DNA from: Octopus sinensis
Lineage: Eukaryota
Direction of reading: 5' to 3'
DNA length: 64,000 nt
Assembly (NCBI RefSeq): GCF_006345805.1
Contig: NW_021833914.1
Coordinates: 21,120-85,119 of the forward strand
This document shows positions 33,036 to 60,419 of this stretch, piece by piece. The notes below the pieces were generated by a model. It saw only the letters and a list, made by a program, of their open reading frames with translations. It ran no database searches and was not told the origin of the DNA. The position numbers and the translations under genes are program-made. The first letter of the stretch is position 1, and the number at the start of each line of letters is the position of its first letter.

Positions 33036-35506
33036 TCAAATTCCATAAACTTTACGTATAAGACAAGTCAGGGACTGTTGATCGTACTTAAAATACTTAG
33101 TCGGCGTCGAAGAAAAGGAGAATCTGGCATAACTCATAACTTCCTGCTGATACTTCTTTACAACGAGTACACAACACTTGGCACAAATATCCTTCCGCTG
33201 TTGAACGTCGGCCAAATACATATTTCCATGAGATCTGGCAATATCCTCCAAATCCTTATTAAACACCTACCACAATAACATGCACTCAGTCACATTAAAC
33301 ATGTCTTTAATGGCCTTCCGTTCCCGCTCCCTCAACTATAAAATAATATAATTAAAAGACAACTTCTGATCCAGGTTTGTATACATCAATCTCAAATGGC
33401 TTGAACAAATGTTCCCATCTTTCATGTATAATAAACAATGTACATTTGTAAATATTCCCCCTCAAACTTGGCAATATTCTTGCTTATTCTACTCTTGGAG
33501 TCCTCCAATAGTCGAATTGTGATCTATCCCTACAAAATCGCCAAACAAGACATGCCTATCACTCGTCGGGGAAAATACCAGAAAGGACAGATTCCTCAGA
33601 ATATATGTAAAATTGTTCATTAGAAACACATTTCTTATCCCCGAATCGCCATAAAGGGTCGCTTTCTGCAGGAGATTGGCCTCCAAAGGTGGGAGAAATC
33701 CCTTCACTGCCATTCAACCAACCCACCTACCAATAAAATCGACAACATTAAGAGTAGCAGCAGACAAGGACACGTCCGAACCTATCAAATGAGTCAAAAA
33801 ACACATTTCTCTGAAAAGGAGACTTCACTCCGCCTGAGGTAGTATATTTTCAGACACTCCCCCACGCTCTGTTTATTCTCAAATATTATTTTTAGAAACG
33901 GCATTGTCTGAATAGACTTAACATACCAATACTTGGCAGCCAACTCATGCACATTCCCGTCTGGGGGCATTGACGAGTTGTTTATTGGGTCAATCTGGCA
34001 ATTTATATGACAGAATAAACCCTTATCAACTCCAGTTGTCGTTCCATGATTTTTCCTGCCATGTTCTGCAGATCGATGTATAGGAAAGTTATTTTGGACG
34101 AAAATGCCTCCAATGCTTTCAGATTCTTTTGAACACAAATCTTGAAGCCTGACTCAATTTCGTTTATATTCCTCAGACCACCCAAAAGGGAGAATAAGGC
34201 GGTTGAAATCCCCTCACATGTTGCCAATGTTATTATCAAATTGTCCAATTTCTATATTTTATGTTTAGTTCTCCACCTTGGAGTCACTTTCGAGTGGTTC
34301 AAGTCGAGGAATAATTATCATTTTGAATATTTGATTCACAAGCGACTTGCCAAACTGGGAAAAAGTGGCTTTAATAAGATCGAGCTCAGTCTCGGCCAGA
34401 ATGGTCAAATTATACAAAGACAGAACCAGCAAATCGACACTAAAACCATCCAAGTCCCCCACGTTTTTACGAATGGCAGCCTGGGAGGCGTTCAAAGGGG
34501 AAAATTTTGAAATATTCCTATCACATAAAGTCACAACAAATACTTCAAATGTGAGAAATTACGATAACTGGGACTACACTATTGGAATAAATAAAAAGTA
34601 CAACTGAAGCAGGAGTCTGGTGGGTTGTTTCTGGTCGACTAGTCGTCCGTAAACACTCAAATCTCGCCGTCACAAATAAATCCATAAAATAGTCCAATTT
34701 ACTCTTCAAATTGACTTTAATCCAGTTATAAGAATTTGCCAATTTATTTATTTTGTTGACTGACCGTGAATAATATCCAGCCAAATTATTTCGCACTGAA
34801 AATCTAAGTCGGGAAATACCCTTAAAATTGATTCCCGCGTCGTTTTGTGGAATTCCGTGGTAGTTCCGAGAGCGGGAAAATGACTGGGGAGTGTTTGTGA
34901 CAGAATCAGCAGTTCTGGACATAAAAATGGACTGATCGGGAGTAAAATTATCCTTAATAAAACAGATAATGTCATTTTCCAGCTTAGAAACAAGCGAATC
35001 GAATAAAATTGCCTTTTTTGGTGAGAAATAAAATACAGCGGTTTTAGTCTCGATGGATTCCGGACGATTGGAATGGAAAAAGTCCTTCGCCTTATTCACA
35101 GCATCCAAAACACTGATCATTTCAGAGAGATCGTTGCTGGATGACATTTTTGTTATTAAATATGCCTTATTTTGTCGACTCCGATCTTGTTTATATTTTT
35201 GATGACCTGATAGTGGAGGATTATTGAATCGGTCTGTTTAAGGGCCTCCACGTAGGCTGAGATGTAGTGAGAGAAAGATATACCATGACAGTTCAGTTGA
35301 GAAAGGGAGGATTTGTCAAATATGCACGAGAATGAATCTTCAATGCTCTTTAGTTGAGAGGAAAATGACTCTAATGTAGCTACATATGCGTTTGTCGAAC
35401 TGTCAATGTTAGCCAAAAAATCTTTCATTAAATTCAATCTATCTGTATACTATAAATTAAACATAATTTGTGATTATTTAACATTTGGATGATCAAACTT
35501 ATCCAT
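33036..35506 (-). CDS. EXOC7: exocyst complex component 7 (Exo70), multi-exon
   Basis: ATG 35506 then a 33-nt intron; LESFSSQLKSIEDS, AKDFFHSNRPESIE, MPPDGNVHEL (compare MPKDGTVHEL), ERKAIKD..FNKDLEDI, FSSTPTKYFKY (compare FTKNPEKYIKY). Confidence 0.88.
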
Positions 35507-36298: not shown

Positions 36299-39200
36299 AT
36301 GGCTTTATTCTTAAACATTTTTATTGTTTATGACTTTACTTTTATTTGGATTTAAGTGTTAGAACGAGTATAACCATGCTTTTACACACCAAATAATCTG
36401 ACAAGTTATTTTTAAACCGGAGAACTTTTGAGAAATTAGTTACTTGTCAAATGAGAACTGAGCTTTTTCAGTTTTTTAAAATTTTATAAAAATATTTGTT
36501 TGTATGTTTTAGGAGATTGATTCTGTAAATAATAAAACAATAACTGGCATTTACTGCATTCTAAGTATTCCTTCTACCGAAATATGCAATTTTTGCGAAT
36601 ATTTATTTTGAATTCTTCAAAAACACTTAAAGAAAATATGAATAAAATTAATAGTAAAGCTCAATTTAATGAAGGTTCACTTCTTTACGACTGTCTAGTG
36701 AAAATTATTTCGATTTTTATAATCAAGAATGGAGTTATCTCAACATGCTACAGGAATTATTAATAGTAGATACATTATCTTCATAAAATTTAAAATCGTT
36801 GTGGTGTTGTGGCGTGTTTATCGTTTTTGACAATTATCTAATGTGTCAATAGAGAGTATAAATATAATCTGGAACTTGGATCGATGTCAGATAGACATTT
36901 GACTTTTTCGATCAGAATTTATATATCACGTGCTTTCTCAGTCCGGAATTCCGAACGCAAATTTTGTGAAAACCTTAATCAACAAATAAAATATTATTTT
37001 GAAACTCAACAATAAAAGGATTGAAACTGTAAAACTGGGAAGAGAAATCCGGCAAGAAGATTCACTCTATGGATCCGTTAAGTATGATCTTAAATATGAA
37101 GTTCCGGAAGGTGTGTCTAACCAAAGTCATCTGCTTGCGGTCTTATATTTGACAAACTATTTGTTGTTTATTGAAAACGTGAAAATAATTGGTGAGAATG
37201 AGAATATTGTTTTAAAAATGATGAAAGATTTTTTCGATGTTTTTTGCTTCAAGAGGGACTCAGAAAAATCTCAGACCAACTTGCACTATGTGAAAGATAC
37301 AAAATGTCTGTATGACTGCGTTGGGCAACTTTACCAGGGAGTTCTGGAGGATAGAAATATCAACGTCAAGAAAAACGAAGTAATGTGACCAATTGCTCGC
37401 AGCTACTGATCTGGCAATTCGCTGTATTCTAATCAATTTACGAATAGATCTTAATCCTGAAAATAAATAACGATTTCAGAAATTTCTCATTTTCTAGGAT
37501 CCTAGTTTTTAGGATCCTAGCGGGATAGTTATTCCTTCAGTTGTTTTTAGTCGGATCTCTTCTCCTTTGTTTTCCATATTACTTAGTCTGTTGAAAACCT
37601 TCCAAAAATGAGGGTTTTTCTTATTCAGTTTTTAGCATTGTCTCTTCATAGCAAGGTCTGAATGATTTTTGCGACATCATTTATCTCTGTTTTCACGGTA
37701 CGAATCTTATCCCGAAGACGAATGCAATATATGGTGTCACTGCATCGTCTTAGCTTCTTTTCAAGGTTTCCCTTCCATTTTATAAGTTTTCCCAAAGATT
37801 CGTCAATCCGGGTTTTTCTGTTACTATTTGACATGATGTATTTTCTGACCGAAGATTTTTGGAGAAAATCCAGTTAGCTTCTCTGAGAATTTTATCGAGT
37901 TTTTCAATTTTTATATTTGAGGAGATGTTTTCTATTGGATACGGTATCAAATGCATTTTCATTGATATCTCGAAGTCAGACCAGATTGTCCGAGACGTAT
38001 CATATCCGATGAAAAGATCTTCGCATATCGTAGATGATGTTTGCATACATAAAGATTGAGGTAGGTGATCACTACCAATGTTTATCTAAATTCTTGGTAT
38101 GCTGCATTGATGAACAAGATCAGCCGATACAAGAAAAACTTCAATACAATCCTCCCCATAACAAGAGAAATGGTTTGGTTCTTGTAAGGTCAAAACACTA
38201 AAGCCGCAGTTCTTCGATAATCTGAGGAGTATATGACCGTCCGAATTTGTATTAGCACACCAGTACGATGTGTGTTTTGCGTTAAGGTCTGCTATTAGAA
38301 TTCCTCCATCATTGTTTTGGAAAAATTCTTCAATAAGATTTGGTTAATTCTTTATTGCTTTGGAGTACATAGCTCCTACAGATATCCATCCAAGGAATGT
38401 TAGTAGTTTCAATGCAATTAGTTCGCAAAAATTTCTTCAACGATTTTCAAGTCCCTCACCATTAGATTGTCTTTATAATGTCAGGTCGCCATGGGATATC
38501 AATCGACTGAAAACCATGGATTTTGTGATGCTGCTTTCCCTTAAGCTTTGTTTTATTAACAACCAATATGTTTACCGATCTAACCAAGTAGCTTAGCTCT
38601 GTAGCCCGTTTCCGAATTGACCGGGGGTTGATAAGCGTAAAAACGCTCATCTCGTCAAGTTTTGGTGACTGTCCTCCATAAAGAGCGCCACCAGTTCCAG
38701 TAAATTTTTAAACGTTTTTTTAGTCGTCGTTTTCGATTTAAGATGGAGATCCTCCAATTGATTCTTGGAGTATTTTTTATGATTTTCTCTGGGTGGCCCT
38801 CATGGAGATAAAGTCAGGTATTAATGCTGATCTTTTTTTCCTCTATTTCCCAACGAGATTTTCAACAAAATTTTTTCCAAATCAGCACAGGTAGCACATA
38901 ATTTTCTTTTGTTGGGAGATTTGAGAATATTACGAGCCTGGTTATAAGCAGTCGAGGATTCATCTAGAACAGGGGTCTCCAAACCCCGGCCCGCCATGTG
39001 ATTTAATCCGGCCCGGCTGTTATAAATATCTTTTTTTGGCAATAAGAAAGGAAATAGATTTGTTTCTCATAAAGAAAAACTGAAAAGAACCACTTTTGTC
39101 AGACACAGAATGGCTTTGTAGATTGGCTTTTTCGTGGACATTACAGGCCATATGAATGAATTAAATCTCAATTCGCAAGGTTAATTTATTATATTTTTTA

Positions 39201-39918
39201 TACCATTTCCTATACTAAATGGGAATTAACGTCAAACAAAGTGGTATTAACGTCAAACAAAGTGGGATTAAGGTCAACTATGTGGGATTAAGGTCAAACA
39301 AAGTGGGATTAACGTCAAACAAAGTGGGATTAAGGTCAAACTATGTGGGATTAAGGTCAAACAAAGTGGGATTAACGTCAAACAAAGTGGGATTAAGGTC
39401 AAACTATGTGGGATTAACGTCAAACTAAATGGGATTAAGGTCAAACTATGTGGGATTAACGTCAAACTAAGTGGATTACGTTTATTATAAATATTATATT
39501 TCGACGCAGCAAATAAAAATGCCACGTAAATCATTGGAAGAGAAAAATCAAATGCATAGAAATAAAATACATTTAATTTCAGCTGCAGAATCAGGTGGAG
39601 ATTGGAAAAAAACAGCACTTGAACTCAATATCCCGAGAACAACGAGAACAATATAATTGGATGCATCTCAAATCTAGGACTCATTTACTGTAAAATCCGA
39701 AGGGGAGCTTTTAAAAAAGAGCAGATATGGTTAACATAAAATTTTAAAAAAAGAATTTTTGGTGTTAATCCCATTTAGTTTGACGTTAATCCCACATAGT
39801 TTGACCTTAATCCCACTTTGTTTGACGTTAATCCCACTTTGTTTGACCTTAATCCCACATAGTTTGACCTTAATCCCACTTTGTTTGACGTTAATCCCAT
39901 TTAGTATAGGAAATGGTA
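39201..39918 (+). mobile_element. non-autonomous Tc1/mariner-superfamily element with long TIRs built of 21-bp tandem repeats
   Basis: TA|TACCATTTCCTATACTAAATGGGA..TCCCATTTAGTATAGGAAATGGTA|TA; unit gtgggattaa(c/g)gtcaaac(aaa/tat), about 12 copies left and about 7 inverted right; HTH-like start MPRKS..AAESGGDWKKTALELNIPRTT. Confidence 0.82.
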
Positions 39919-40278
39919 TAGTTTTGAAGGTGAATATGCTCTTATTTGTGATTTATTCACAGATGTCAAGGCATTTAGGTAAAAACTAGTGCTTTTTGGA
40001 AAACAACTCAAAAATAAAAACTGTTCATTTCGCATTTTGCGAAAATTTCTGTAAAGAAAACGTTTGTAAATTTCCTGTCGAATTTGGTACCCAAATAATT
40101 AAGGATTTGAAGAAACAATTTCTTAAACGATTTTCTGACTTTAACAAGAGAAACGATGAAATAAGGTTTTTTGATAGTTTCATTCATTGAAGGTTATTTT
40201 AAAATCCTTTTCAATGCGAAGCCGAAACTATTCCAAGTTATCTTCAACTTGAAATAATTAAACTCCAATCAGATAATA

Positions 40279-41804
40279 TGTGACATGGGCGGCTGGATAC
40301 GTATGGGCAACCGGTTACATTTTTGACCTTGTAGATGTCAATTTTTAATCATCGATAACTTTGTTTCCCCTCCACTCTAGAGCCAGTCGGTCTCTGCCGG
40401 AGTGATGGAAAGCGTCCTGACGGGATGACTACCTTCCCTTTCAGGGAAGGCAAGTCCCTGATTTGGGACGCAACTTGTGTTGACTCGTTCTCTGCGTCGG
40501 TGTTACTCAAGTCCATCACTAACCCGGGTTCCGCCAGTGCTCAGGCTGAAGAGGCTAAGAGGTCGAAGTATGGAAATATTTCGGACTCTTACGAGTTTGT
40601 CCCCCTCGCCTTCGAAACATCTGGAATTGTCGGCAGGTCTGCGACTCGCCTTCTTGCCAACATTACCAGGAGAATCGCCAAGAAGACCAACGACCGGAGG
40701 GAGACGAGCTGGCTCTTCCAGCGAATCTCGGTCGCAGTGCTCCGCGGAAACTGCCACTCGATACGCAGTGCGGCGACTTTGAGCTGACCTCCAGGCTCTT
40801 TATTAATTCGTGTATAACTTATTCCCCATTTTAATTAAATATTTGTTATAAAAAAAAAACTTGAAAGAATAATGCATTTTAACAAAAAAATTAAAATTAA
40901 TCATTTTTTTAGTCTTGCCATTGGTACCGTCCAAATCTCTCCTTTATCATATTTTATCTATTAAATAAAAATGATTGATTTGCCTCGACTCGATTATTTG
41001 ATAAAATGTTAATTATTTCAGCGCCCGGATAGAAAGGAGACTCGAATTTATCCATCCCCTGTGTACGGGGATTGTTTGGTCTTCCATGTATCTGAACTAG
41101 ATTGAACTCTTCGCATAGATCTCTCAGAGACACATTCTTGAATTCTGAACCATTATCTAATTGCAAAATTTTTCAAGGTCTATATAGGTAGAAAAATGAT
41201 CTTAAGTTGTTGCATACTTCTTTTGAAGATTTATAAAAAAGTGTTCTGACAAATGCAAATCTGAATAAATTGTTGAGAGACCTACTACCAACCTACTATA
41301 ACACCTACTACCAACCTATAATTATTACAAACTTTTTTAGATCTACAAGATCTAGCTGAAACCTTTCATTCGGAGAAGAAGCAAAGATATGATGATTCAT
41401 ATCACCAACCTAAATTAAAAATTAAAAAGAATTAAAACTTTCAATGGACAGGCAAATTTACATACTTCACAATTTCGAATGACTTTTGTGATTTGTTTAC
41501 TCCTCCGTGTGAATATTCGTGTAGAGATTTAGCTACATGCTCCATTTCAGTTTCGTTGTCAAAGTAATACAATCTGTGCATTAATCGTAAATATAGAGTA
41601 CCTTTCATTGATTATTGTAAAATTCTCGATCTTTTTTATAAGTCTATATTTTGCTTGCCTAAAAAAATCTTCGGGAATTTATTTTCCAAAGCATCTTTTA
41701 AAATTCGATACTCTGAAGAATCTTTGACATAACCTCTATAAGAAGCCATTAAAAGGTCAAAAAATGTAACCGGTTACCCATGCGTACGCGTTGCCCATGT
41801 CACA
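40279..41804 (-). mobile_element. Ginger2/Tdd-type DNA transposon nested in the hAT
   Basis: TIRs TGTGACATGGGC..CCGGTTACATTTTTGACCTT and its inverse; 5-bp TSD taata; host frame QSDN|ILKDKY restored on removal; integrase HEYSH..CEVC, ERFQLDLVDL, QLDNGSEF, HGRPNNPRTQG. Confidence 0.9.
40365..40859 (+). mobile_element. CRE 3' fragment with poly(A), nested in the Ginger element
   Basis: LEPVGLCRSDGKRPDGMTTFPFREGKSLIWDATC..QRISVAVLRGN; A-run at 40850-40859. Confidence 0.9.
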
Positions 41805-42881
41805 TAATATTCTGAAAGATAAATATGAAAAACAGAATATTATTCAATTTTATAAATATTTAAATTCTAATCAATTTCCAATTTTGAAACGATACGCATG
41901 CGGATTTATATCTACTTTTGGTACAACATACCTTTGTGAACAAACATTTTCAAGAATGAAATATGTAAAATCCAAATATCGAGCAACTTGTCGGATGAGC
42001 ACTTAAAGTTGCTTTTGATAATCGGAACAACAGACTTGACGCCTGATTACAATAAAATATATAAAACGAAAAGTCAGTTTCATCATTTTCATTAAAAGCT
42101 AATGTTTAAATCTTTCTTGTTATTCTGTCTTTTTAGTCGTAGTTAAAAAATTAGGAACATTATTAAATCTAATTGATTTTACACTATGGCCCACGGTCAT
42201 CTACCAAATATTCTATCCGGCCCGCGTTGTCAAAAGTTTGGAGACCCCTGATCTAGAACTTGGAGCCCGTGCATTTCAAGATGGTCAGCAATAGGCAGGA
42301 TTTTTGTTTCCCGATAGAGGTGGTCAATGGTGGAAGATTCTAAACGTCTGATTCTCGTTCTAAGCCCAGCATTCTATGTTTTCTCTTGTTATTTACTTCA
42401 ACGTAGATTTAAACATAAGTTACTTTGTTACAAATGAACTTTATTTACGTCGTTTCAACATAAAAAAATGTTTGCCAGGAAATTTAGTAATCATACAAGT
42501 TAATTACAGCTTTTCATTTTATTTAGTCTCTTGTTCTTTTACTAACTTGTTCAATTGCTTTTGCATAAAGATATTTTCCATGTGGGAGCCGAACGCTTTA
42601 TTTTGTGTTAAAAGCTACATGATCCTTAATTGACACCAAGCTCCTACAAGATAGTGAGACTAGAGTTAAATGACAAGCAAAGGACTTCAATGAAAAACAA
42701 AATTAATAAACTAATCCCAAAAATTCCAATGATGAGTCAGCATAAAACCTTTTTTACTTTATTAGCTTAAAATCTGTTTGAGTTTTGTTTGTTATTTTAA
42801 CTTTTTGACAAATAAATTAACTTATATTAAATTGTTTTAATCATAATATAAGTTCATAATTTGTTATAAATTATTAATCAA

Positions 42882-44449
42882 ATGGTCGACGCATTCCGTG
42901 AATATCTGCGATTTCCAACAGTCCAACCAGATCCTGATTATGGTGACATTCTATTAAATAAAAAGCACTTTTAGGTCCTGCAGTTAAATTTCTCTCTGAT
43001 TTAGCCCTTGGAATAGGGCTTCAGCTTACCGTTTTAGAATTTTATCCAACAAAGCTGATTCTTGTAATAAAGTGGCAAGGGAACGACCCTGAAGCGGAAT
43101 CAATTTTACTGAATTCTCACATGGACGTTGTTCCAGTGTACAGAGTATTTATGTGTAAATTCAAATATTTTAAGGAGAAATGGACATTTGATCCATTTGG
43201 TGCAGAAATGGACAATGATGGGAACATCTATGCACGTGGAAGTCAGGTTTAAATATATTATAAATGTGGTTAGGATATGAAATGTGTCACAATTCAGTAT
43301 TTTTTAATTTACTGACGTCAGATATTTAGAAGCGATCAGAAAACTCATCAAAGAAGGTTATGTTCCGCGCCGAACTATATACGTCAGCGTAGTACCAGGT
43401 TTATAATTTTTATTTTATTGTTATCAGATGAGGAAATCGGTGGACTGACCGGAATGGCGACGTTTGTGAAGAGTGAGTATTTTAAATCTCTCAACATTGG
43501 TTTTGCCCTTGATGAAGGTGTTTTATTATGTCACTAAGAGTTGTAGGAATTGCATCCCCAAATGCAACGTTTTCAGTTTTTTATGGCGAAAGGACTGTAA
43601 TGCGTTTGATTTTTTTGACTTGAATGATTTATAGCATTCAAATTGACGTGTCATGGAAACCCAGGCCATGGGTCACTTTTTTTGGAGAACACTGCAGGAG
43701 AGAAGATGGTAATAAATTTTACGTTTTAAATTATAGGCAAACTGTCTCGCTGCAGTACAATCTTTCCGCAATAATGAAAGACGAAAACTTGAAGAGTTGT
43801 TATGAAACTGTTAATTTTAGAAATCCCGGGATGAAACTGGGAGATGTAACAACTGTCAATTTAACTGTTCTTGAAGGCGGCGTACAGACAAACGTTATCC
43901 CGGCCACTCTTTCTGCCAGTTTTTTTTCTTATTTAAGCTATTTGAAGCATTTGATTTACGATTACCTTCAACCACAAGTTTTACTGAAATTTGTGATCAG
44001 GTTTTTCCTGAAGCTGAAAAAAATGAGATTTTTATCAATAAAATTTATGTTTTATTTGAATTTTTGTAATATTTGACAGGATAGTGAACAAATTCAACCT
44101 TCGTCCCTTGATTCCCCGTTTTGTAAATCGTTTTTTTCTGCTATTGATGAACTGTGAGTTTTAATCAATAATTGAGTTAAATTATATTTTAATTTTAAAT
44201 TTTTGATAAAAAACTTTAGTGAACTGGAAACACAGGTCATGATTTTTCCGGCAGGAACTGATGCAAGATATCTTCGTGGAGTACATTATTAAATCTAACA
44301 ATACATAGACTGGAATTCCAGTTCTCAATTTTTCCCCGATGAATAACACTCCTGTGCTTCCTCATGACCATGATGAGTATCTAAATGTTGATACGTTTTT
44401 GCGAGGAATTGATATTTATCAGATCATTCTCCAAAAAATATCAACTTAA
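42882..44449 (+). CDS. ACY1: aminoacylase-1 (M20A), 14 exons, intact frame
   Basis: [103 protein letters not shown]. 13 GT-AG introns (12 of about 25-32 nt, one about 65 nt); metal ligands retained. Confidence 0.95.
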
Positions 44450-51324: not shown

Positions 51325-51846
51325 TTTTGATTCTTATGAGGCCACCGACCAAGAAGAAATAGCGATTTTTATGCTTTACCGACGGTTTATATAAATTTAA
51401 CTCTCCTAACAAACATAGACTTTGAAGACGCCGAAACAATCTTAATTTCAGAAGTAAGGATCCTCTTACAACATCGGTATGACTTGTCTTTATACTCCTT
51501 CAGTGAAGATGCCAATACCAGACGACGATGCTCTCGAGATCTCCGAAGTCTTCCGATCTACACTCGATTACTGCAATTTATTCAGTCGCTTCAAGACAAA
51601 GGACAGTCAGTGCTGTCCGCAGGTTATCGGGATCTCTGAATGAGTAGCGCCTTGGGAAAACCTGAATTGCATAAATTCGAGCGAGCTCAGTTGGCTAATT
51701 TGGCCCCTTCTACCGTCTCTCAGGCCAAAGCGTTGATTCCGAGGTTTCTGTGTTTTTGATATGTCAGTCTTTCTGATAAATTATCTGACGAGAGTATTGC
51801 TTCTATCATTGACGATGTTCATTCCAAGACTAAATTCCAACTTTAA
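51325..51846 (+). CDS. POLR2D: RNA polymerase II subunit RPB4 (with apparent frameshifts)
   Basis: DFEDAETILISEVRILLQHR..EISEVFRSTLDYCNLFSRFK..LHKFERAQLANLAPSTVSQAKALIPSL..IIDDVHSKTKFQL*; four introns of 24-34 nt. Confidence 0.92.
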
Positions 51847-52291: not shown

Positions 52292-53200
52292 TTAATAAAT
52301 TTTAATAAACTCCTTTCCCCAAGAACACCTGAGAGGAAAGCCACCAATGGAAGTGAATGTGCAGAATGATAGCCTGAACACTCTCCTTCCGATCAAATCT
52401 GCCATCAAAACACAAATACAACTGAATAAAAGCATATCCTTTTGGACAAACTCTAATTGTAAGAATCTGCCAAAATGGGAAAAAACAGCTCTAAGCGTGT
52501 CTTCCGAAACAAGTCCAGGAGGCAGTCCCCCCACATAGACAGTCGAATTAGTCTGAGTTGTCTGAGCTGATATTTGGTCTATAAGAACGGTCCTTTGTGG
52601 GACACACTTTCCGTGAGGCCCAATTAGTCCTAATTGGCCGACTCCCAAGCCACTGAGAATTCATTTGGAGAATAGCACGGGAAGCATCCTCTTCGTGATG
52701 AAGGAGATGAACCCATATCCCTTCGAAACTTTGTGACTGGATCAACCACGACCTTGCAGTCCCTGCCATGTCACACCTCCATTACGATATCTCCCCGAAC
52801 TGAGCAAATGCCCTACGGAGTGCTTCGTTGTCGATATCTGGACTGATATCCCCCACGAATATGTGAAAGTGTTCTGTGGGTGAAGATATTTCATTACTGC
52901 TTGTGTCTTGCTTGTTTGGAACTGCTGCCCATTTTTATTCGTATTTTCTTGCCGTATAATTCAATGTTGCTTAATTGGGCCATCACATATTCTCCGTCTT
53001 CTCGACTGCAGAATTCGACAAAGCAATATGGGTCGTCTGATACTTCTCGAATCAATTTGCAGACACACAATTCACATCAAACGAGTAATCAGCATTATTA
53101 TTAAGTTTCGTCAATACAGCCAGGTAGGTTCCCAAAGTACCTAATTTTTAATCACAAGACTAACAGAGTCCCGCTGCCATCTCCGGTGTTTATTGCACTC
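52292..53200 (-). CDS. TIAL1: TIA-1/TIAR three-RRM RNA-binding protein (with apparent frameshifts)
   Basis: TLYFGNL, DPYCFVEF, EHFHIFVGDISPDI, MNSQWLGSRPIRTNWASRK, NSTVYVGG, RCSWGKE. Confidence 0.88.
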
Positions 53201-54309: not shown

Positions 54310-55369
54310 TTTAATTATAACAATGCACCTCGATTGTTGTCCAGCACAACAAACCCGATAATAACAATTATAAGATAAAAATTATAAATGATTTTGTAAA
54401 GCTCTCCTGCATAGCTGTTTGGATTTCCCGCATTTCTGCTTAGTTGTCACAGACTCGACAGGAATATTAAAAAAATAACAATTCATACGCCGATCAAGTC
54501 TTTAAACATTCATCTGTAGAGTTGCTTTTTATTAGACGTTGGATGTTTAATAAAATAAATATGCACATTAATTTTTGGCTGATAATAAGCGAATTAAAAA
54601 GTTATAATTTGACTATTTTAATTTGGTCGGAATTAAATCTATTTATACAGACCAAAGGGGGCTTATGCGAACTTCTTTTGAAGACACTGATTGTTTCAGT
54701 ATCAGAATGGGTGTTAGATAAGGCTGTATTTTATCTCCCATTTTGTTTAATATTTGCATGAAAATAATATGCGGAATCATAATCGGTGACCTAAACATAA
54801 TTAATCTTCGAAATGAGGACGATACCAAGTTTTTCTTTCAGAAACAAAGATGGATTGAGGCAGTTAATAGTGTATGTAAAGAAAAGTCCACATTTGGTCT
54901 TTTCCTAAATGTGGAAAAACCAAATAATTGCAACTTGACTATCTAAAAAATAAGAATTGTTGTTTTATAACGAGGAAATAGAATTTTCTGAAAGCAGTAT
55001 CTTTCTGTTTACTCTGATAATTAGAGATGGTGGTTTTGTCTCAAAATCAATAGAGCATAGCCTTGTGCAGAAGTACGATAATAAAACTGAATCGAATCTG
55101 GAATAGCATGATATACATACCGGTCATATGTTTTAGACATTCTGAAAAATCCCAGTGTTTGATTTTTCTAAAGAAAAATCTTATTAAAAAATGCTTTTCA
55201 TTAAGCATTATCCATTTTTTTTTAGTTATTTATTTTTTCCCAATCTCATCGTCACTGTATTTTCGACATCTTGATCTTTTTATGTTTAGACATTTACGAT
55301 GCACATGCATAATCTGAATTTTTAAAAGTTAAAACGAGTTTTTATTAATTAAACACAAGTTAGTATTTA

Positions 55370-55800
55370 GTTACATCTCCTTTTTTTCGATATTACATCA
55401 TGTATTCTATTTGGGATCGACAAATACAAGTTTTGAATAATCATCTCCCATCTTGTTCCATTCATCTTTTGCCATCTCCCATAGTTGCTTAATGTTCTGA
55501 GGTTTCTATTTCTGATTTTGCTCTTTAAATAATGCCAGCAATTTCTATTATGTTAAGATCTGGCGATTGTGCAGGCCAATTGTTTAAAATATTCACTCCT
55601 TTTTCAAGCAAATAATTTTTTGTAGACCGTGAAGTATGACATGAACGCACACCTTGTTTGGAAATAAAGTTATCATCATATATCTCAGAAAGCCCTTGTT
55701 CCAAGATTCGTTGATATTCTACGGATCTACATTTCCTTCGCACAATATCAAGGCACTTTTTCCATCGTATGTCCAAAGACGAAGATAAGACTTTTCAACG
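55370..55800 (-). mobile_element. Tc1 transposase 3' remnant
   Basis: YQRILE..CHTSRSTKNYL..WPAQSPDLNIIE. Confidence 0.85.
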
Positions 55801-55919
55801 CGTTTGTGTTACCAGTCTTCCTCTATGGTTATGAATCGTAGGTTTGGCATAGAAAATAAAATATCGCTATCTGCGTTTATTATTAATATTATTAAGAGCA
55901 CTTTCGAGAAAGCATAAAG

Positions 55920-56290
55920 TTAATTAAGTCTCCCTTGTGCCGTGTTCTGTAACATCTCTCTCCGTTAATCTCGATCAGAATTTTATGTTGCGCGCGATAT
56001 CTTTGAGGTTGTCCAAATCGTCCACCGACTTCAGTCGCAGACCAACCGTCGAGAGATCCCCCTTAGGATGGTCGGAAGCGTCGTTCTTGGTCTACCACGG
56101 AATCCGGACTCCGTCTGCGCAAAGAAATAATCTATTGCAATCTTCGCTGGAACCAGGTCCTTTAAACGTAAAACTGGCCAAAAAAACTCCATCTCGATCT
56201 GAAAATATCATCTGACGAGACACCGGATTTGCATTTATTATAAAGTTTTTCATTGCTGAAGCTTAGCTAAGGATAATGGATTAACAGTCG
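55920..56290 (-). mobile_element. RTE-clade LINE 3' end
   Basis: ..SNEKLYNKC..RWSFFG..PAKIAIDYFF..FRGRPRTTLPTIL. Confidence 0.7.
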
Positions 56291-59139: not shown

Positions 59140-59944
59140 GAGGCAAAAATCTCACGTATTAAGAATATCCTTGATGAAAACGACAGCGAGAATATAACAA
59201 TGATGAACTCCCAATTATTCGCGATAAAGAAATTCAATTCATCCTATGATTTTCTCTTTAAATTAAATGCATATATCATTATCGACCATGAATCAAAATT
59301 AAAGCTATTATCATATTTGACTTTGACAGGATGTGCATTACAGATTGCACGACCTTGAATAGAGTGTGCAATTAACAGATTTTGAAAAACACTTTGATAG
59401 TTAAAACCACATTAGCACAATCATTACACAATTTACCACCAATTGACAGCGCAATCAGAAATTTTGCGTAAAAATATTAACTATTAAGTTAAGTTTTTCG
59501 TATAGATAGAATTTATTTTCGGTATGCCTCTTTTCCTAAACTTTTTTATTATTCAAAAATAATTTTTTAAATAGATAACCGAAGGAGGAAAAACGAAGCT
59601 GAAGAAAAAACGGTCTGCTTAAGGTAATTAATTAAATCTTTTTTGTGTCGCTTTTCTGCTTCTACTCTGCCTGCCGCATCTCCGGCTGCCCCATTTCCGC
59701 CAGTGGTTTGTCTAATCAAGGTCACTAAGCTAAATCTCCGGACTATAAAGGCTCTTAAGCATTATCTTAATTGGCTGTTAAAAAATTAGACTGGTTGTTG
59801 CCGTGGCGGCAGAGATTTTTTTTGTTTATACTATTTTACAATTTTTAAATTTTAAAGTTTTTTTTTTTTTTTTTTATTTTTTTGTTTTTAAATTATTTAT
59901 TTTTATTTTTTTTCTTTATTTTTTGTTATTTTCTAAAAATTCAA

Positions 59945-60419
59945 CCGGATTGAATTTTTAAACTCCTTAGATCCCTCTGGAATGCCGAATCATCTTTTAA
60001 AGTTAAAGATAGGCGTTCCAGTGGTTTTATTACGAAATCTTGCGCCACCTAAATTATGCAACGGAACGAGGTTAGTTATCAAAAATTTGATGGCTAACGT
60101 AATAGAGGCTACGATATTAACAGGTAAGTATAGAGGTAAGGATGTTTATATTCCACGAATTCCGATAATTTCTGATGAATTACCATTTAGATTTAAAAGG
60201 CTGCAATTTCCTTTGAGGATGAGTTTTGCAATGACAATAAACAAGGCCCAGGGACAGTCATTAAAGGTAGTTGGGTTATTTTTAGAGAGTGAGTGCTTTT
60301 CACATGGACAGCTGTATGTGGGATGCTCGAGGGTAGGCAGAAGAGAAAATTTATTCATATATGCCAAGGAAGGACGACAAACATCGTTTATCAACAGCGA
60401 TAGAATAGGGTTACATTAA
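59945..60419 (+). pseudogene. Helitron PIF1-like helicase C-terminal fragment
   Basis: [67 protein letters not shown]. Confidence 0.93.

Follow-up and report, generated by a model that had tools for sequence, protein, structure and literature searches.

The transposase of BuT2, a hAT transposon of the Tip group, is divided into five exons (PMC3942097), Ginger1 carries one to four introns (PMC2836005), and TLEWI are intron-bearing Tc1-like elements of bivalves without terminal inverted repeats (TIRs) (10.1101/656579), as described in the available parts of these reports. According to the accessible text of other papers, dicyemids inhabit the renal organs of cephalopods (PMC12953835), their median intron length is 27 nt (PMC6543705), and their splice signals are reduced to GT and AG, such introns being reported among animals only in dicyemids and myxobolids (PMC13644364). 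A further system is the Rogers model, in which a tandem duplication containing AGGT is the source of an intron; the excerpts available state that this was shown experimentally with a longer duplication in human cells (PMC3265369, PMC4974935), and that the minimum duplication length in these cells is ~60 nt (PMC3265369).

Intron gains with a visible source have rarely been documented, and the tiny introns of dicyemids have so far been described as old introns that shrank. The locus presented here is a decayed hAT copy whose family, designated family A, carries three segments of 26–28 nt that, judging from the sequence, are quite likely spliceosomal mini-introns gained inside an animal with tiny introns, itself probably a dicyemid. 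Since the relatives of these transposases are intronless, the starting state is known, and new introns of 26–28 nt could be seen being born.

The locus and the genome to which it belongs

The window analysed is a stretch of 64,000 nt from one contig of the Octopus sinensis assembly, and the features of the locus are listed in Table 1. With its nested elements removed, the hAT copy matches residues 351–601 of its relative P0002, which amounts to 40% of a SPIN/Buster transposase at the 3' side, and, introns aside, it contains three stops and three frameshifts; this copy is dead. The nested 718-bp TIR element sits at a TA inside the 28-nt intron and has a short helix-turn-helix-like reading frame in its middle. 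The Ginger2/TDD-like element gives a weak rve match in Pfam (E 0.0013, below the cut-off). Integrases of this type on the same contigs, here and at other loci (L017, L022, L086–L105), have introns of 24–32 nt, at two positions common to subfamilies, i.e., PLK| and YSR|FAF; because Ginger introns are already known, shrinkage instead of gain may explain them. Elsewhere in the window there are a decayed Tc1-like transposase (55300–55950, minus strand) and the 3' end of a Helitron-like Pif1 helicase (59937–60416, plus strand), and inspection by eye found no evident mini-introns in these two fragments.

Table 1. Features of the hAT copy and its surroundings (positions in the window; TSD, target site duplication)
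Feature	Position	Strand	Evidence
SPIN/Buster-type hAT copy of family A, decayed and non-autonomous, first ~350 codons missing	38970..42250	+	TIRs, TSD, translation, PF05699 match
Left 8-bp TSD ATCTAGAA (right copy 42251-42258)	38962..38969	+	sequence
Left 15-bp TIR, perfect (right copy 42236-42250)	38970..38984	+	sequence
Remnant of a transposase exon (profile residues 351-400), interrupted by one stop and one frameshift	39033..39179	+	
Putative mini-intron at residue 400, phase 1, AAG|GT..AAG|GT, enlarged here by nested element	39180..39929	+	
Nested non-autonomous TIR element, 718 bp, 21-bp subterminal repeats, TA target duplication	39201..39918	.	
Transposase exon, residues 400-479	39930..40165	+	
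Putative 27-nt mini-intron at residue 479, phase 2, AAG|GT..AAG|GT; like first 24 nt of following exon	40166..40192	+	
Transposase exon part, residues 479-507	40193..40278	+	
Nested decayed Ginger2/TDD-like integrase transposon, TGT..ACA ends, TAATA 5-bp duplication	40279..41804	-	
3' fragment with poly(A), within the Ginger-like element, which we take from its motif to be a non-LTR retrotransposon	40340..40860	+	no Pfam match
32-nt GT-AG mini-intron in Ginger-like integrase, at YSR|FAF	41261..41292	-	by eye
29-nt GT-AG mini-intron in Ginger-like integrase	41410..41438	-	by eye
Final part of the transposase exons (residues 509-601), including the catalytic Glu in LCEQ and the hAT dimerisation domain	41805..42095	+	
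Aminoacylase-1, neighbouring host gene, intron-size reference	42882..44449	+	

The assembly (G000) amounts to 2.72 Gb, and aminoacylase-1 occurs in it twice, as a gene of 42.5 kb on a 213-Mb scaffold and as a gene of 1.6 kb beside the hAT element; about five intron positions, compared by eye, are common to both. In the gene on the small contig there are 12 clean introns of 25–32 nt and 83% AT, excluding a misaligned one near residue 315. Against this reference of one host gene, the 11 transposase introns analysed measure 25–31 nt and are 86% AT. Every match of at least 85% to family A lies on small contigs. Rpb4, tried first as a two-genome probe, gave copies from small contigs only and was replaced by aminoacylase-1. 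A second, compact genome with tiny introns is present in the assembly, and the window does not come from the large-genome animal. The owner is probably a dicyemid parasite that was co-assembled with the octopus, an assignment drawn from intron size, the host label, the standard code and intron positions shared with animals, and not from a sequence match. Dicyemids are the likely owners because, as mentioned above, they inhabit the renal organs of cephalopods, have introns of ~27 nt and use signals reduced to GT and AG.

The window locus exists in at least six versions in the assembly (contigs C10385, C9254, C12601, C11040 and C12605); three contain the nested elements and the other three do not, and more diverged copies of aminoacylase are found in C11702 and C9082. 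The assembly thus combines several haplotypes, duplicated loci or more than one parasite species. Other host genes with tiny introns in the window are located at 51340–51845 (plus strand), which we take to be an Rpb4-like gene (no Pfam match), at 52300–53200 (minus strand), an RRM protein that is presumably TIA-1-like, and at 33039–33713 (minus strand), Exo70. The products of small contigs carry the octopus label in databases, and several of the models (P0039, P0040 and P0290) skip or read through mini-introns, giving truncated proteins; the 365-residue model P0290 ends at the stop of the unspliced frame. Intact transposases are missed or truncated by standard annotation and filed under the wrong animal.

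Putative mini-introns of family A

Family A shows a CxxH and an RW motif, a DDE transposase domain and a C-terminal dimerisation domain, and it groups with SPIN/GTF2IRD2-like proteins. Transposons of the Buster group produce 8-bp target site duplications with a preference for a central TA. Genome searches gave 15, 19 and 32 matches to the family; its copies occupy at least eight distinct target sites, seven of eight with the central TA, and all those found are defective. The initial annotation had proposed an intron of about 30 nt, without its insert, running from the GT at 39180 to the AG at 39928–39929, and another one of 27 nt at 40166–40192, and both are correctly placed. At the first site (residue 400), deletion of the nested element and one TA leaves 30 nt, and the intron measures 28 nt in the copies with an empty site (L004–L008 and L015). 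The second (residue 479) is a GT-AG segment holding in-frame stops. The proposal that these two removals restore the frame holds at each site but not for the copy as a whole, which lacks ~350 codons and bears the three stops and three frameshifts already mentioned. No other copy was found to be free of the segments: the 28-nt GT-AG segment is present in 4/4 independent insertions that span residue 400 intact, and the segment at residue 479, of 26–28 nt, in 5/5. Among the family A copies examined there is no precise intron loss; L007 and L008, which are alleles of the window insertion, lack 39 nt at site 479 through an imprecise deletion. A third segment, of 26 nt, is located at residue 286, where it is complete in one copy (L015, GC-AG) and partly retained in another (L004, beginning with TC).

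The segments were also evaluated with an excision test, in which ~3,200 possible excisions per site, with any start and a length of 0–60 nt, were scored against a Buster profile. The best lengths were 28 nt at site 400 and 27 nt at site 479, and the GT-AG placement was tied best in L004 and L007. At the second site of the window copy it ranked below six shifted placements, owing to a nearby stop created by a point mutation. At residue 286 two shifted non-canonical placements outscored the GC-AG placement, and the support for this intron is the weakest among the frame-restoring introns. Shorter alternatives, of 20 nt at site 400 and of 15 nt (GT-AG) at site 286, were discarded, as they left an incorrect frame or a stop codon. 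Of the three segments, two have frame-shifting lengths and the other contains stops; once they are removed, the majority codons of the family are open over 596 of 601 profile columns and the D/D/E motifs are kept. Of the two columns with a majority stop, one is a 1:1 tie, and the other is a stop common to deletion derivatives, with Ser in two other copies.

Other remnants were seen around these copies. L004 (reverse) contains in its transposase, at ~1218–1280, a 60-nt insertion with an 8-bp flanking repeat that resembles the footprint of another hAT. Further Buster-group fragments lie on small contigs at L020:1444-2820 (minus strand), L015:902-1264 (minus strand) and L022:2130-2402; the one in L020 is open over ~370 codons and fused to a piece of family A.

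Other Buster families and intronless relatives

A protein search yielded 1,398 candidates, of which 150 were scored and 40 fetched, mostly those on small contigs and with interrupted frames. Two families, X and Y, are represented by intact copies (3/6 fetched for X, L108–L110; 5/7 for Y, L113, L114, L116, L117 and L144), which have TIRs, distinct target site duplications (that of L117 not matching) and 99–100% identity; both families, with copies 99.9% alike, are recently active. Their frames extend over 593 columns with no stop or frameshift after the removal of three GT-AG segments of 21–30 nt (residues 168, 350 and 469), and when unspliced they stop at codons 366 and 487. Although their proteins are only 51% identical, X and Y have all three intron positions and phases in common, with unrelated intron sequences. 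An introner, i.e., an intron-generating transposon, would leave many near-identical introns at unrelated sites; by eye, the 11 transposase introns seen are mutually unlike. Two introns in X and one in Y break the frame; the remaining three of the six are in frame and stop-free, so that read-through is possible. Taken together, X and Y show three distinct indels in 164 intron bases versus two in 3,525 exon bases, to which long-read errors may contribute. An intron at site 350 is also found in L123, and in family V, represented by four decayed copies, a segment of 27 nt lies at residue 67. Outside family A, the excision test returned the called intron as the best length in 9/9 cases, with the GT-AG placement best or within the top 10 of ~3,200. 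Single-copy calls in decayed loci (L004 at 332, L015 at 66, L034 at 211, L121 at 292, L125 and L130 at 284–318, and two in L012) were not retained, being attributed to the aligner or to insertions of another kind.

Families X and Y provide the strongest indirect support for splicing, and the mini-introns of these transposases are very probably spliced out. A U2 spliceosome that needs little beyond a GT and an AG ~25–30 nt apart would remove the segments, which would keep the transposase functional and allow the family to continue jumping.

The same contigs also carry two families without introns, Z and W, whose TIRs are unlike those of A, X and Y. They are no nearer to outside relatives than family A; therefore, gain is not a rule and is not visibly tied to residence time. 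The idea that intronless families are recent arrivals is not supported, given that P0156, which matches Z at 91%, itself bears the octopus label and lies on a small contig. A recent transfer between octopus and parasite was likewise set aside: no family is common to both among the 150 scored of the 1,398 candidates, and the nearest chromosome family has 55% protein identity.

The state of the relatives was assessed in 82 homologues of 450–700 aa, for most of them at the level of the protein sequence. Inserts of at least six residues occur in 1/73 of them at site 286, 1/74 at site 400 and 0/68 at site 479. Related copies on chromosome-size scaffolds (L033, L034 and L126) align without the inserts of family A, and the intronless relatives include two genomic reading frames that stay open for 619 and 632 codons. 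In quick trees, for which support is given as SH-aLRT values and no Ac- or Tip-group outgroup was included, family A groups with P0001, P0143 and P0002 (97–98), within the intronless Z and chromosome families; X, Y, L123 and P0291 fall together in another clade (100), and V is placed elsewhere on a long branch. A topology uniting family A with X, Y and P0291 was rejected (p-AU 2e-6), the tested clade having been chosen after the first tree was seen. The different positions and this rejected grouping indicate that the mini-intron sets arose at least two times, and probably three. P0291, which belongs to the X/Y clade, has no interruption at any of the three X/Y sites; it could represent a spliced transcript or else a relative without introns. 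The introns of X and Y may therefore be an old set that shrank, as gain at small size and shrinkage of older introns cannot be told apart in these families.

For family A, gain within this lineage is likely. The initial annotation had argued as much from the premise that Buster cores are usually intronless, and the scarcity of inserts at sites 400 and 479 agrees with that premise. The introns are fixed in the insertions, have the host-like size (25–32 nt) and AT-richness, and have no counterpart in relatives. Its statement that Buster transposons gained introns is extended by the third intron of family A and by other mini-introns in other families, but it does not apply to Z and W. In the same way, the match to a tiny-intron class stands, but the host whose class it is would probably be the co-assembled parasite.

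Origin of the introns and comparison with known systems

On balance, we lean towards an origin of the family A introns by tandem duplication of 26–28 nt across AG|GY. All three are located at AG|GY with flanking direct repeats of 4–6 nt (AGGC, AAGGT and AAGGTT). A random 26–28-nt exon segment of family A spans such a site in 0–19% of placements (~11% pooled over five stretches), and hence three of three would be expected by chance ~1 in 700 times. Internally, the introns are similar to the adjoining exon sequence on both sides, i.e., to the beginning of the following exon and the last part of the preceding one, with 13/22, 15/24 and 14/23 matches, GT and AG excluded. The pooled value of 42/69 compares with 27.8 +/- 3.3 in shuffles (p 0.0004, for a likeness seen by eye before testing) and, against 1,563 other junctions, gives a post hoc p of 1e-5. 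The same signature is at chance in the 12 host introns (110 versus 108.7), and among nine introns of other families, which include one of L138 at 472 that is left outside the family count, it is significant in one (pooled 92 versus 87.6, p 0.24). Age may have erased the signal in X and Y; V is also without it. A duplication of this kind would give a ready intron in one step, and the duplicated segment would afterwards drift to AT-rich sequence. If the spliceosome accepts 25 nt, much shorter duplications than those used in human cells would become introns, and the duplication model becomes testable in a natural, repeated setting. A broader proposal, possible and put forward tentatively, is that with such a spliceosome the commonest small mutation, a short AG|GT tandem duplication, becomes a one-step intron, that transposases record this repeatedly, and that the mini-introns would confine elements that normally move between hosts to the parasite lineage, since splicing them would be beyond other animals.

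Transposons suffer frequent double-strand breaks, and a gain in this lineage through the repair of such breaks, or through tiny insertions with short flanking repeats in place of a full tandem duplication, would account for the direct repeats beside each family A intron and for the V intron, which is flanked by a repeat without internal likeness to its flanks. We regard this as rather unlikely for family A, where the likeness spans the intron interior even with GT and AG uncounted. It is improbable that the introns are real but old, i.e., that they were of ordinary size in an ancestral Buster element at entry and then shrank, and that the relatives lost them or never showed them. The positions shared by X, Y and L123 across a deep divergence, with no pooled duplication signature, fit that history, introns are hidden in protein databases, and other hAT, Ginger and Tc1-like transposases carry introns in the available descriptions (PMC3942097, PMC2836005, 10.1101/656579); however, family A would need several parallel losses among the intronless lineages around it, and a flank match at exactly the intron length fits birth at small size. 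That the segments are never spliced and are the scars of duplications or insertions, which killed the master copy and were moved in trans by an intronless transposase, is very improbable, because the defective state of all family A copies, the intronless Z and W on the same contigs and the GT-AG ends that a duplication across AGGT yields automatically are outweighed by a divergence of ~40% from the apparent source (versus ~5% between copies) with an open exon frame, by the unlike TIRs of Z and W, and by the same three positions being held by X and Y at 51% identity in otherwise intact frames.

Introns in DNA transposases, dicyemid mini-introns and duplication-born introns are each known; literature searches, with most subscription papers outside their coverage, found no report on Buster transposase introns, dicyemid transposases or the combination. 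The elements resemble the Buster group (SPIN/GTF2IRD2-like) in their short TIRs, their 8-bp duplication with central TA and a DDE transposase of ~600 aa, and the nearest full-length relatives, in a cluster with members from turtle, mussel and crustaceans, are 56–59% identical. They differ in having introns of 21–31 nt at seven positions across families, where the relatives are continuous. With BuT2, Ginger1 and TLEWI, as far as the available text of those reports describes them, they share spliceosomal introns within a cut-and-paste transposase gene; in contrast to them, there are several independent intron sets within one genome. The introns have roughly half the length of the shortest ones in BuT2, and, unlike TLEWI, the elements retain TIRs and have moved recently. 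Gains under the Rogers model, in the excerpts at hand, have AG|GT at both ends and an interior that resembles the flanking exon (PMC3265369, PMC4974935), as in family A; the duplications would here be of 26–28 nt, with three events in one gene, and >~60 nt was needed in human cells (PMC3265369). In size and signals the introns are like the miniature introns of dicyemids, with a median of ~27 nt and signals cut to GT and AG (PMC6543705, PMC6736024, PMC13644364). The accessible text of the two dicyemid genome papers makes no mention of transposons ("transpos" occurs 0 times), and in that text these papers treat the shrinkage of introns in host genes, whereas the introns described here are located in transposases.
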